In this document: one piece after another, positions 48,689-58,211 of the stretch
How positions within the stretch are numbered: the first letter of the stretch is position 1
Layout of the letters: every line of letters starts with the position of its first letter
Assembly: GCA_040217195.1 (NCBI GenBank)
Contig: JAVJNR010000004.1
Location: 640,001-704,000 of the forward strand
Source of the DNA: Leptospiraceae bacterium
Lineage (GTDB): Bacteria > Spirochaetota > Leptospiria > Leptospirales > Leptonemataceae
Length of the DNA: 64,000 nt
Reading direction: 5' to 3'
The notes under the pieces: model-generated
Seen by the model: only the letters and a program-made list of their open reading frames with translations
The model's database searches: none
What the model was told of the DNA's origin: nothing
Program-made: the position numbers and the translations under genes

Positions 48689-49060
48689 TCAGATTTCGGA
48701 CTCAAGATAGTCCCGAATCAGTCTTAGTTGAGCCCCGGACAGAGGTTGCCTACCCCGGCCACGACGGTAGTGCTCCATTCTGCGAATTGTATTTGTCCAG
48801 CCTCCCGGAACCTTCTGGGCCGGGTTGGGCAAGGCATGACATTCGCTACAAACTTCGCCAAACAGAACTCTTCCTCTGGATAGCTGGTCCCCTGGAGCTA
48901 CCGACTCTGGCGCCAAGCCAAAAACACCTGACAGACAAGAAAAAGAAGGGATAACCCAGAACATGGAAATTGCCAGTAAAGACCGGGCAAACGGCCGCAA
49001 TACCGGAGCCAGCCCGAGTCTGCTGTTCACCATCTGCCCGGTAATTCGTGGCTCCGGCAT
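48689..49060 (-). CDS. Small c-type cytochrome (probable lipoprotein)
   Basis: CSECH...W..TIRRM; GAGG before ATG 49060; start uncertain. Confidence 0.7.
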   Translation of the reverse strand: MPEPRITGQMVNSRLGLAPVLRPFARSLLAISMFWVIPSFSCLSGVFGLAPESVAPGDQLSRGRVLFGEVCSECHALPNPAQKVPGGWTNTIRRMEHYRRGRGRQPLSGAQLRLIRDYLESEI

Positions 49061-49118
49061 TGCCTCTACCTGGCACGATTTTATGAGGCCTGGACTGTCG
49101 CTGTCCGTCTGGCCCAGG

Positions 49119-49199
49119 ACTTTCGCTACTTTCGCTACTTTCGCTACTTTCGCTACTTTCGCTACTTTCGCTACTTTCGCTACTTTCGCTAATTTCGCC
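49119..49199. repeat. 9-bp tandem repeat (VNTR)
   Basis: (ACTTTCGCT)x8 plus one degenerate copy. Confidence 0.97.
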
Positions 49200-49313
49200 T
49201 GTTCATTGCCTTTTTGCATTCAGGGCTCCACTGCCGCCGACCCAAAAATAGAAATCCACTTTCCCATACGAAAGCAGGCCCGGAATTAATCATCCGCGCC
49301 TGCCAACGGGTTT

Positions 49314-54206: not shown

Positions 54207-54220
54207 TTGATCCAGATCAA
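54207..54220. promoter_or_regulatory. Bidirectional FNR/DNR box
   Basis: TTGAT-CCAG-ATCAA; -10 TAAGCT on + (22 nt) and TAATCT on - (23 nt). Confidence 0.88.
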
Positions 54221-55585: not shown

Positions 55586-56056
55586 ATGAAACCAGGACAA
55601 AGCAAAACAATTGAAAGCGCAATGTCAGTATTCGCATACGTTGCAATGAGCATCGCTCTGATATTGGCACCGGCCTGTGGTGATGGCCATGACTCCCATC
55701 AAAAAAATGAAATACATTCCCATGCAGATGATCAAAAGCATGATGAGTCTCCGGTACAATTGAACAATGGGAAGAGATGGCAGGCTGATTCGGCTACCAA
55801 TGAATCAATCAGGAAAATGCAACAGTTGGCTTCGCAAAGGCCAGGTAATCCGTCCGTTGCTGGCCAAGAGTTACAAAAACAATTCAAGGTCCTATTGAAA
55901 GAATGCACAATGCAGGGACCCGCCCATGAGCAACTGCATGCCTATCTGCGTCCTTTACAGAGTAAAATAAAATCGCTGGAAAACTGCACCGACTGCCAGT
56001 CCAAAATGGAGGATCTCAATTCCTATCTCCATACCTATTCGGACTACTTTCAATAG
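55586..56056 (+). CDS. His-rich helical lipoprotein (DnrO-like)
   Basis: APAC lipobox, His-rich linker, LNNGKRWQAD, CTMQGPAHEQLH. Confidence 0.65.
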   Translation: MKPGQSKTIESAMSVFAYVAMSIALILAPACGDGHDSHQKNEIHSHADDQKHDESPVQLNNGKRWQADSATNESIRKMQQLASQRPGNPSVAGQELQKQFKVLLKECTMQGPAHEQLHAYLRPLQSKIKSLENCTDCQSKMEDLNSYLHTYSDYFQ

Positions 56057-56226
56057 GAATGGAAACCGGAAGCGAATCCAGATTCAAGGTAGACTTTTAA
56101 AGCCTGTCATTTACTGAGCAACCCGGAACTGATCATGATGTTCTGGTTCAAAACCAATCTGAACCAGAACGTGGGAGCTTTCCTTTTCTCGAGCCAGGGA
56201 GAAATCGGCTCTTTACGTAAATCCAT

Positions 56227-56254
56227 AAAAAACCGGCCGGGTATGAGCCCGGCC
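56227..56254 (-). terminator. Rho-independent terminator
   Basis: GGCCGGG-CTCATA-CCCGGCC-GGTTTTTT. Confidence 0.8.
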
Positions 56255-56367
56255 AAATCCCCTATTCTCAAGTTTCTTTGCAGGTAGCGACTGCCTGTTT
56301 CCTGGCAGAAGGACGATTCGAAATAACCGGTTTCGCCCTTTCTGTTAGTCTCAGGCATTGCTGATGT
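56227..56367 (-). ncRNA. Candidate FNR/DNR-activated sRNA (~140 nt)
   Basis: FNR box, extended -10 and intrinsic terminator, with no credible ORF between them. Confidence 0.55.
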
Positions 56368-56401
56368 GGACTTTCTATACCACAGAACAGCCTCCCACTC
56401 C

Positions 56402-56415
56402 TTGACATTTATCAA
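56402..56415 (-). promoter_or_regulatory. FNR/DNR box overlapping a stop codon
   Basis: TTGAC-ATTT-ATCAA (identical to 46406); TGG-TATAGA with the -10 22 nt downstream. Confidence 0.75.
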
Positions 56416-56657
56416 CCCATGGAAAAAAACCATAGTGCTCCGCCGGCAAAAAAGGAAAATAGAATCAGAAGCCAGATTCCATAAATTGGATGCGCGCGTC
56501 TCACTTCCATGAATTCCAGAGCAACTAGAGCAAACTTCGCAGCACTTAAAGCCAGAATCAAGATTAGAGAACCGGTGCGATATTCTGCGAATAGATACAT
56601 CCCCAGGATTAGAAGCAGAAGTACAAATAGAACGATGGTATTCAATTTTCGTATCAT
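56412..56657 (-). CDS. Cytochrome c oxidase subunit IV-like (NorF-like) small membrane protein
   Basis: KFALVALEFMEVR motif; TAATG overlap with norE. Confidence 0.75.
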   Translation of the reverse strand: MIRKLNTIVLFVLLLLILGMYLFAEYRTGSLILILALSAAKFALVALEFMEVRRAHPIYGIWLLILFSFFAGGALWFFSMG

Positions 56658-57247
56658 TACATTCCTCCACGAGCCAGTATGTAAATTGAAGGAAAGACCA
56701 GTATCCAGATCAAATCGCACATGTGCCAGAATACACCGATGGTTTCCACATCTTCATGATCGGCGGCTGAGTATCGCATCTTGCGGATTCCCAGGGCCGC
56801 CACAATCAGAAGAAAGGTGCCCACCACTACATGCAGAAAATGAAAGCCCGTAATTAGCCAGTACATGGTAAAGAATGTATCGTAATTCAGACCATAGCCG
56901 CTATCAAGCTTCTGATAGTATTCGAATCCTTTCAGGGCTAGAAAACCTGCCCCTGTGAGCACCCCCAGCCAGATAAGCAGCGAAGAGCGATTCTTCTGGT
57001 CCAGCCTTAGATTTCGAATTCCTTCGGCAACACACCAGCCTCCCACAATGAGAAGACCTGTATTCACAGTGCCCAGAGTTAGATTCAATGTTTGGGCTGA
57101 TTCCATAAAGGAATTTGCATCGCCGTATCTATAGGCGAAAAATACAATCAGTGCCGGAATAAAAGTCAGCATTTCGATTGATAGGATCATCCAAATCAGG
57201 ATCCCTCCTGGTGGATAATAAATTCTTTCACTTTGTTCGTGTTCCAT
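56657..57247 (-). CDS. norE: Cytochrome c oxidase subunit III family protein NorE
   Basis: YPPGGILIW, TGFHFLHV, FWHMCDLIW; nor context. Confidence 0.88.
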   Translation of the reverse strand: MEHEQSERIYYPPGGILIWMILSIEMLTFIPALIVFFAYRYGDANSFMESAQTLNLTLGTVNTGLLIVGGWCVAEGIRNLRLDQKNRSSLLIWLGVLTGAGFLALKGFEYYQKLDSGYGLNYDTFFTMYWLITGFHFLHVVVGTFLLIVAALGIRKMRYSAADHEDVETIGVFWHMCDLIWILVFPSIYILARGGM

Positions 57248-57373
57248 AGCATACTCACATCAGATCCGCCAGCTCCCTGGTTAGGCATAAGGGCTAATTG
57301 TTTCAGGTAACCAATGCCTGAACTGGAGGATTCTTCATTCACTATAATATAGGGAAAATATTATGGCCGGGCA

Positions 57374-57387
57374 TTGCTACAGATCAA
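57374..57387 (-). promoter_or_regulatory. FNR/DNR box, norE promoter
   Basis: TTGCT-ACAG-ATCAA; -10 TATATT 22 nt downstream on the minus strand. Confidence 0.75.
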
Positions 57388-57507
57388 GGAAGTTCCATTT
57401 TCAGAACGAAACGTTCCTGACCCATTTGTAAGTTCATCCGCTCTTTCATTCTAAGGTCTGGCAGGTAGCCGAATCAATGGTGTCGATACAGGAATGAATT
57501 ATTGAAG

Positions 57508-57580
57508 GGATCTATCATCAGAAAGTATCTATCATTAAGAGGGATCTATCATCAGGAAGGATCTATCATTAGGAAGGATC
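57508..57580. repeat. 17-bp tandem repeat, 4 copies plus a partial
   Basis: GGATCTATCATCAGAAA, GTATCTATCATTAAGAG, GGATCTATCATCAGGAA, GGATCTATCATTAGGAA, GGATC. Confidence 0.9.
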
Positions 57581-57587
57581 AAGGAGC

Positions 57588-58211
57588 TTACTGTTCATCC
57601 AGCAGACGAACGTAGCCATCATTTTCAGTGATCCTACCTTGCTTTTTAAGGGCCGTGAAAGCCCGACTGAAAGCTTCAGCAGATACTCCAAGATACAGAG
57701 CCACCTGGTTTTTGGGAATATTAAGATAGACTTCCTTTTCTGCAGCTCCCAGAGCCTCCAGAAAAAAAACCACCCGCTCCTCTGTTGTATGCAGCATTAG
57801 CAAAGTAGTTTTATTTTTAAAGAACTCTGCATTGGAGACAAAGTCTTCCTGAAAGCATTGCTTTAAATCAGGATGCTTTTGCATCAGGGAAAGGCATTCA
57901 TCTACCGGGATATAGATGACTGCACCGTCGCGAACCGCCTCGCACGATGCAGGATAAACAGGCATGGTCTTCAGCATGGGAAGAGCGGCAATAATGGAAC
58001 CAGGGAAAAAAAAGTTAAGGATGGCTTCCTTTCCAGCTTCATTCAATTGATAGATCTTAAAAATTCCCTTATCTATTACGTAAGGCCCCCGAAACCCATC
58101 TCCCTGCAAAAATACGGTTTCTCCGGCTTCCAGGGTAATTCTCCTGGAAACACTCCGCAGTTTATCGCGACAGGGTTCGGGCACTCTATTCCAGAATTCG
58201 CTCTCCGGCAC
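57588..58211 (-). CDS. Crp/Fnr family regulator (Dnr/NnrR-like)
   Basis: cNMP-type beta-barrel, YPAS, HTH EAFSR (E-x-x-S-R); no FNR N-terminal Cys cluster. Confidence 0.88.
   Translation of the reverse strand: MPESEFWNRVPEPCRDKLRSVSRRITLEAGETVFLQGDGFRGPYVIDKGIFKIYQLNEAGKEAILNFFFPGSIIAALPMLKTMPVYPASCEAVRDGAVIYIPVDECLSLMQKHPDLKQCFQEDFVSNAEFFKNKTTLLMLHTTEERVVFFLEALGAAEKEVYLNIPKNQVALYLGVSAEAFSRAFTALKKQGRITENDGYVRLLDEQ

Follow-up and report, generated by a model that had tools for sequence, protein, structure and literature searches.

A candidate DNR-activated small RNA gene behind the norEF operon of an uncultured genus of Leptospirales, with a possible target in the aa3 oxidase operon

We describe a candidate small RNA (sRNA) gene that lies at the end of the norEF operon of a Leptospiraceae bacterium. 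Its promoter geometry, hairpin, seed, and terminator recur in relatives, and on these grounds a real sRNA gene, with transcription inferred, is quite probable; a base-pairing function of the RNA is probable to a slightly lesser degree. The gene appears to be undescribed and is known so far from one uncultured genus: neither this sRNA nor any DNR-activated RNA directed against an aa3 oxidase operon is described in the literature covered, chiefly papers outside subscription.

The window, the whole stretch of 64,000 nucleotides analyzed, belongs to a 4.6-Mb host genome (G000; 93.7% complete), taken to be that of an uncultured member of the Leptospirales family neighboring Leptospira. Its minus strand carries a denitrification cluster: norC, norB, norQ, a norD-like gene, a Crp/Fnr regulator, NorE-like and NorF-like genes, and, further on, nirK, all named from family matches and context. 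The sRNA unit follows its host gene, the NorF-like gene (56412..56657, -; COX4_pro-like, below cut-off), which is preceded by the NorE-like gene of the COX3 family (56657..57247, -). The norEF promoter box, TTGAT-N4-AGCAA, lies at 57374..57387 (-), with TATATT 22 nt beyond it. The gene next to the unit is convergent in G000, as it is in the relatives G002 and G005, and its stop codon is at 56056. Between this stop and the sRNA terminator, more inverted repeats occupy 56066-56175, and a second terminator-like site is seen at 56081-56066.

The promoter is composed of an FNR-type box and an extended -10. As the initial annotation had it, the box overlaps the stop of the NorF-like gene: TTGAT-AAAT-GTCAA, with 1 mismatch to TTGAT-N4-ATCAA, is found at 56415-56402 (-), over the TGA at 56414-56412. 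The box centre, 56408.5, falls at -41.5 from a predicted start at 56367 that is inferred from the spacing of the -10. This -10, TG-G-TATAGA (56374..56382, -; TG 56382-56381, TATAGA 56379-56374), comes 22 nt after the box. The same annotation had likened the spacing to that of the nirK and norC promoters, and the likeness stands: the norC box (62853-62840) is followed at 22 nt by TATGCT and the nirK box (44458-44445) by TACTCT, though the nirK hexamer matches at only 3 of 6 positions. The 22-nt distance from box to hexamer is more than chance in this genome: a -10-like hexamer stands at that spacing in 9 of 206 box orientations, versus a mean of 2.8 over 16 other spacings. Of the 17 sites in the genome with a box, 22 or 23 nt, and TA, 9 fall in the denitrification cluster; 8 of these have a same-strand gene downstream, and the sRNA site is the sole exception. 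A general promoter scan leaves the sRNA promoter unlisted, as expected of a promoter without a -35. Elsewhere in the window, a single perfect box at 54207-54220 is shared by two divergent promoters, of a hemerythrin-domain gene (22 nt) and of a DUF2249 operon (23 nt). Outside the cluster, three box+22 promoters extend the regulon (G000:C1:144456, C1:152504, and C2:563657); their genes, named by sequence inspection, encode a FAD-binding-type protein, a hemerythrin-like region, and a membrane protein.

The most likely activator, judged by sequence, is the DNR/NnrR-like Crp/Fnr regulator of the cluster itself (57588..58211, -). TTGAT boxes are read by an E--SR recognition helix, and among the three Crp-type helix-turn-helix matches of the genome, only this protein has one. 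Set against the cysteine ligand pattern of the FNR [4Fe-4S] cluster, it has 1 Cys in its first 50 residues and no FNR cysteine cluster. Since the regulator is DNR/NnrR-like and without that cluster, NO or nitrite would, from knowledge of the family, be a likelier signal than O2 itself. The initial annotation had proposed an FNR- or DNR-activated RNA with a logic like that of FnrS; the RNA has a predicted promoter of its own, whose geometry is conserved together with hairpin, seed, and terminator, and the choice of activator has narrowed to the DNR-like protein. Between dnr and the norE promoter, at 57507-57575, lie four imperfect tandem copies of a unit of about 17 nt (GGATCTATCATCAG-like), and none are seen in the corresponding stretch of relatives.

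The predicted RNA is about 141 nt long (56227..56367, -), with a start predicted from the promoter spacing. It opens with a conserved single-stranded 5' end (56361..56368, -), in which CAUCAG is invariant in 4 of 4 core members, followed by a long hairpin, P1 (56290..56359, -), whose sequence varies strongly among species and of which each version folds. The conserved 3' core, GUCRCUACCUGYAAAGRAACUYGA (56268..56291, -), is an unstructured stretch of 24 nt and holds the near-invariant seed CUACCUGCA (56279..56287, -), which is unpaired in the centroid folds of G002, G005, and G006 and partly paired in G000. A weak hairpin, P2 (56256..56277, -), stands ahead of the intrinsic terminator (56227..56256, -), a stem-loop at 56256-56233 with a U-run at 56232-56227 that is common to the norEF mRNA and ends where it had been annotated. 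The intrinsic terminator, its U-tail, and the conserved single-stranded seed agree with the general kind of Hfq-dependent base-pairing sRNAs. The fold has a z of -2.96 (1 of 200 shuffles) and that of the opposite strand a z of -4.0; folding cannot fix the strand, because the reverse complement folds equally well.

The only ATG-initiated open reading frame (MPETNR...) passes through the terminator, as reported earlier, and no open reading frame is conserved: no start codon or frame is common to all four core members. The RNA also keeps its initial description as one of no recognized family. Rfam gives no match at gathering score in the window, 4 weak matches up to E 10, of which none is FnrS, and none up to E 1 in the loci of 5 relatives. 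Matches to SorY, SorX, RsmZ, and group II were rejected as chance at the level of the terminator; likeness to the motifs of the hammerhead and of the c-di-GMP riboswitch was rejected by Rfam and by want of conservation. A riboswitch or attenuator leader was likewise discarded, with no same-strand gene past the terminator in G000 and a convergent arrangement in G002 and G005. Neither BLAST nor a model of the RNA found a paralogue in the host genome.

Conservation in related genomes, which the initial annotation had named as a check, was found in G002, G005, and G006, and in diverged form in G001 and G004. BLAST of a 2.1-kb region against 40 relatives recovered the 3' part of the element in the first three, all of the same genus. 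Here the full unit (box, 22-nt spacing, -10, hairpin of varying sequence, seed, and terminator) is present in 3 of 6 same-genus genomes, with a perfect-consensus box right after the norF stop in each. TGG-TAT is invariant in 4 of 4 core members, and the sequence of the 22-nt spacer differs. The RNAs of G002, G005, and G006 fold with z of -3.86, -3.11, and -4.45 despite divergent hairpin sequence. G002 and G006 are near-identical at this locus, so the four core members represent about three lineages.

The diverged units of G001 and G004 are likely homologous to the sRNA, as far as their sequences indicate. The G004 unit is shorter, with a perfect box, 22 nt, and TATAAA, 70 nt beyond the norF stop; its fold is insignificant (z -0.58), and it scores 12.8 bits with R1, a model built without promoter sequence. 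The same model picked G001:C592 at 17 bits (E 0.24 in a genome search, 0.0024 in 38 kb), where the unit (L042:834-1034) has a perfect box, 22 nt, and TATGAT upstream, and a fold z of -2.0. This unit is located behind dnr, not norF, and precedes a DUF2249-like gene. The gene lies about 60 nt further on the same strand and has no box of its own; as it adjoins the unit in this manner, terminator read-through may feed the G001 DUF2249 operon. Terminators of the GCCGGG type are common, with 4 in G000, so a similar terminator adds little to the case that the G001 and G004 units are homologous. No unit was found behind norF in G001, G003, G011, and G019, nor behind any of 4 boxes in G003 (78% complete). 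Of 7 genus members, 4 carry the core form, and counting the diverged forms brings the total to 6.

In 42 family genomes, R1 gave 4 strong matches, which are its training set, and 7 weak ones, among which L042 has a full promoter and L039 a poor box. Outside the genus, none was found by the model (42 family genomes) or by a promoter-plus-terminator pattern (151 order genomes). The pattern matched 6 of the 151 genomes and drew a blank in the sister family (0 of 109); it missed G001, whose unit is longer, and its sole match outside the genus, G017, was rejected as the promoter of a protein gene. A search of two collections for the exact core pattern gave 2 loci in metagenomes and 3 in genomes; each has nor context, and none adds an independent case to the relatives listed above. 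The contigs of 3 runs examined for expression do not reach the element, which counts neither for nor against its transcription. The A5 pair counts are not taken as support, as the alignment was fitted to the model and includes one chance match.

A search for targets leads to the operon of the aa3 oxidase, sco-coxBACD. Gene calls by a simple script gave 3935 genes in G000 and 1917 in 2.4 of the 5.2 Mb of G005, and 1603 of 1673 reciprocal pairs were kept as having enough upstream sequence. With the single-stranded core as query, coxA ranked first, or second with a slightly different query and interval, and it alone among the 1603 pairs keeps a conserved complement of 8 or 9 nt to the seed within -30..+45. 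The 9-nt complement to the seed lies at coxA +32..+40 (G000:C4:113864-113872). Complements of 6 nt are found at coxB -12..-7 (over the ribosome-binding site), at coxC -19..-14 (just upstream of the corresponding coxC site), and at sco +15..+20, which gives conserved complements of 6, 6, 9, and 6 nt in sco, coxB, coxA, and coxC; a conserved complement of at least 6 nt occurs in 44 of the 1603 pairs. The best run of three genes was scored genome-wide by a statistic devised after coxA had been seen; 3 of 1500 shuffles of the 9-nt seed match the score, as do 3 of 1200 random 9-mers and, with a 12-nt seed, 16 of 1500 shuffles. Random 9-mers choose the cox run in 57 of 3000 cases. Among all 136 9-mers of the sRNA, the four best are the four that span the seed, and all lead to cox. 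Where the seed varies, the predicted duplexes have a G-U wobble or leave the base unpaired. G000, G002, and G005 have the coxC site; G001 and G004, both of which are without the canonical seed, do not. The diverged G004 unit is complementary to 8 nt of the coxB leader, and its best 9-mer leads to the cox run with a score that is insignificant alone. In G006, coxA was not found, and in G003 its start is unassembled. That the sRNA lowers the aa3 oxidase by targeting cox, taking the whole chain of DNR/NO signal, cox target, and repression together, is a serious possibility on this evidence, if somewhat short of probable.

Energy-based scoring gives a different weight to the run. There the score is insignificant, being exceeded by 14 of 60 shuffles (17 with rounding), and 0 of 60 shuffles ranked the cox genes themselves as high. 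Among 60 shuffles of the whole RNA, 7 attain the same maximum somewhere. It is the coxA 9-mer that carries the signal, which is gone if the interval ends at +30 (705 of 1200). The coxA site is palindromic and makes up half of a 6-bp hairpin in the mRNA, of which the predicted duplex uses the loop and the 3' arm; because of this hairpin, the net gain from pairing is only about -7 kcal/mol, and the G000 co-fold used a different site. Codons 2-14 of coxA are invariant in 5 of 5 genomes, while in the rest of the gene 87 of 441 comparable codons are. Such invariance is not rare at N-termini: among 282 highly conserved pairs, 16 are identical over their first 42 nt. Equal invariance of the site extends to G001 and G004, and G015 and G016, which belong to other genera and are without the sRNA, have a similar hairpin, so the site may be kept for its own sake. 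The invariant codons end in a 16-nt palindrome (G000:C4:113833-113874, L221) that may itself be a regulatory element. The seed, moreover, is anti-Shine-Dalgarno-like, which favors chance matches at ribosome-binding sites.

Neither the 5' CAUCAG nor the 3' half of the core has a conserved target in the 1603-pair scan. A single-genome accessibility scan covered 2070 of 3935 genes and was dominated by the non-conserved parts of the sRNA. At start sites, the best match in a single genome, that to smc, was rejected as lost in G002 and G005, and a site behind a gene near pckA has been seen in G002 and G006. The smc gene has a leader of about 100 nt (G000:C6:64410-64516, L102) that is conserved in 6 genus members, begins near TTGACA, and is possibly structured.

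These results have to be weighed against other readings of the same locus. The region could be merely the 3' UTR and terminator of norEF, with a box that is inactive or blocks read-through. The operon requires a terminator anyway, the unit stands directly after norF in 4 genomes, and the abundance of GCCGGG-type terminators weakens the homology of the G001 and G004 units; yet a perfect box, exactly 22 nt, and a -10 are kept in non-coding sequence in G001, G002, G004, G005, and G006 across a spacer that varies, norF is without such a tail in 4 other genomes, and a 24-nt core is conserved despite being unstructured. Because the unit recurs and moves independently of norF, it is most plausibly a gene of its own rather than an operon tail, and we consider the 3' UTR reading improbable. 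Still less probable is an RNA that acts through a protein, as a CsrA sponge or other decoy, or that encodes a small peptide. CsrA and FliW are present, and the RNAs of G002, G005, and G006 have 5-6 GGA motifs; however, most of these lie in stems, G000 has only 2, and the RsmZ model (RF00166) scores 11.7 bits versus a cut-off of 44. In the same three relatives, an AUG opens a frame, MQ/RSLPA/VKELE, over the core with three silent changes, but G000 has no start codon in that frame, four differences change residues, the frame shifts between G002 and G006, and there is neither a spaced ribosome-binding site nor a stop before the terminator.

If the sRNA is accepted as real and DNR-activated, its targets could still be other mRNAs (ahpC, or genes of G005 beyond the 2.4 Mb scanned), with the cox matches due to chance. 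All the evidence for the gene itself would hold under this reading, which we regard as tentative and rather doubtful. In its favor, energy-based scans give many equal matches and no significant run, and in 6 of 6 genomes positions -9..-3 of ahpC read AGGUAGC, which matches the seed region as a 7-nt complement. That match, however, is the Shine-Dalgarno sequence of ahpC and is equally present in G001 and G004, the smc match does not persist among relatives, and the scan of 1603 pairs returned no second conserved 8-9-nt complement. The slimmest chance is given to feedback of the sRNA on its own operon through the norE leader, where the initial annotation had seen a complement to the 5' segment 56360-56351. 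The 10-nt match (57312..57321, -) is real, and 3 of 300 leader shuffles reach it, a 1% event in G000. The adjoining CACAUCAG also matches the leader at 57263-57256, beside the start codon, so 18 contiguous 5' bases are able to pair with two leader segments, and co-folding gains -9.2 kcal/mol. Yet the 10-mer is unused in this co-fold, and both 10-mers are locked in their own stems in G000. The longest leader matches in 5 relatives are 7, 8, 7, 10, and 7 nt (null 118, 25, 165, 6, and 163 of 300) at unrelated places, including in G004, where the match is equally long; the leaders of relatives, 50-200 nt, are mutually unrelated, and an equivalent pairing was found in 0 of 5. The pairing, unconserved and held in a stem, is judged non-functional and rejected as a conserved function, though it may have an effect specific to this species. 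The norE leader (57245-57345, -), about 100 nt long, contains a long hairpin; over 17 nt (CAGGCA-N5-UACCUG), it is 13/17 identical to the sRNA.

For a base-pairing sRNA with cox as its candidate target, the RNA-handling machinery of the host is of interest. Two hfq-like genes are present: one, canonical, follows miaA, scores above the TIGR02383 cut-off, and can be aligned with Hfq proteins of solved structure; the second (G000:C4:435331-435510, L031) is diverged and below that cut-off. Genomes of this family usually have two or three Hfq matches, and those of the sister family mostly one. Hfq was detected in 149 of 151 Leptospirales, and its occurrence in Leptospira is already published (available parts of PMC11607428 and PMC5243855). 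CsrA, FliW, and RNase III are encoded in the genome; ProQ was not found there. RNase E/G, RNase Y, and RNase J exceed the cut-off in 0 of 41 Leptospirales genomes (G000-G040), which give short partial matches only, and we found no statement in the literature that they are missing from this order. Silencing by the sRNA would need another route, and release of the NarS kind by RNase E is unlikely, as no RNase E/G was found in 41 of 41 genomes.

The mechanism we propose begins with an RNA of about 140 nt, acting in trans, that would be made from a class II promoter at the norF end and share the norEF terminator. An active DNR-like regulator, with NO or nitrite present and O2 low, would have the sRNA transcribed alongside nirK, norCB, and norEF, and Hfq would bind the U-tail of the sRNA. 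The seed might then pair with the sco-coxBACD mRNA over the coxB ribosome-binding site, beside the coxC site, and at coxA +32..+40. Less aa3 oxidase would be made, leaving electrons, haem, and copper for NirK, cNOR, and the cbb3 oxidase. The rationale for such a switch from aa3 to NirK, cNOR, and cbb3 comes from general respiratory physiology. In the host genome a cbb3 subunit is retained with its histidines intact, and bd oxidase was not found in 7 genomes. The full proposal remains speculative, and we hold it as possible at best: a spirochaete DNR/NO-activated, Hfq-dependent sRNA with one 9-nt seed on 3-4 cistrons of the aa3 operon that switches respiration from O2 to nitrogen oxides, silencing without RNase E/G, Y, or J by a translation block, by RNase III, or by a nuclease yet undescribed.

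Compared with known systems, as described in the available parts of the papers cited here, the sRNA would work like FnrS and the Neisseria RNA and appears laid out like DapZ; by sequence it is a member of none. With FnrS of Enterobacteriaceae (PMC8139620, PMC3032703) it shares a class II FNR-type site at -41.5, a stand-alone non-coding RNA, an intrinsic terminator, and a role, here only proposed, in repressing aerobic functions as O2 falls. Unlike FnrS, to which it has no sequence or model match, it has an activator without the FNR cysteine cluster, encoded in a nir/nor cluster, its promoter overlaps an operon end, and no RNase E was found in its host; the FnrS targets given in what is available of these two papers do not include aa3 oxidase. 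The FNR-induced RNA of Neisseria gonorrhoeae (fnrS in PMC3032703) is an independent, non-homologous case with a class II FNR site in a nitrite-respiring host and the same layout of 5' stem-loop, unstructured region, and terminator; it belongs to another phylum and an O2-sensing FNR, and its sequence was compared via Rfam alone. DapZ and MicL (PMC9438474) have their own promoters at the end of the upstream gene and span the 3' region of its mRNA, as here, where the promoter lies at the norF end and the terminator is shared; they differ in regulator, sequence, and targets, whereas here one regulator would drive both the host operon and the sRNA. NarS of Salmonella, PaiI of Pseudomonas aeruginosa, and DenR of Paracoccus denitrificans are tied to nitrate respiration or denitrification (PMC8139620). 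NarS derives from a 3' UTR but is excised by RNase E, PaiI is NarXL-dependent, and DenR works through a GntR regulator. The table of that review, in the part available, lists no sRNA under DNR/NnrR, nor any directed against the operon of a terminal oxidase.

The sRNAs of denitrifiers are few, with mechanisms mostly unknown (PMC8139620, in part), and those of Leptospira have been catalogued with few family matches (PMC5243855, in part). For the RNA described here, an activator is predicted, a seed is defined, and a target can be tested. If the proposal is true, an NO-sensing regulator is tied directly to aa3 oxidase shut-down, with bearing on the split of electrons and copper between O2 and nitrogen oxides in partial denitrifiers. 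The RNA also provides a handle on how Hfq-bound RNAs act where RNase E/G, Y, and J are not found, within a reach that is narrow: one uncultured genus. Apart from the sRNA, the window contains an open reading frame at 48689-49219 (-) in which a perfect 9-nt repeat gives (AKV)x9 near the start, with a CxxCH motif near the end.
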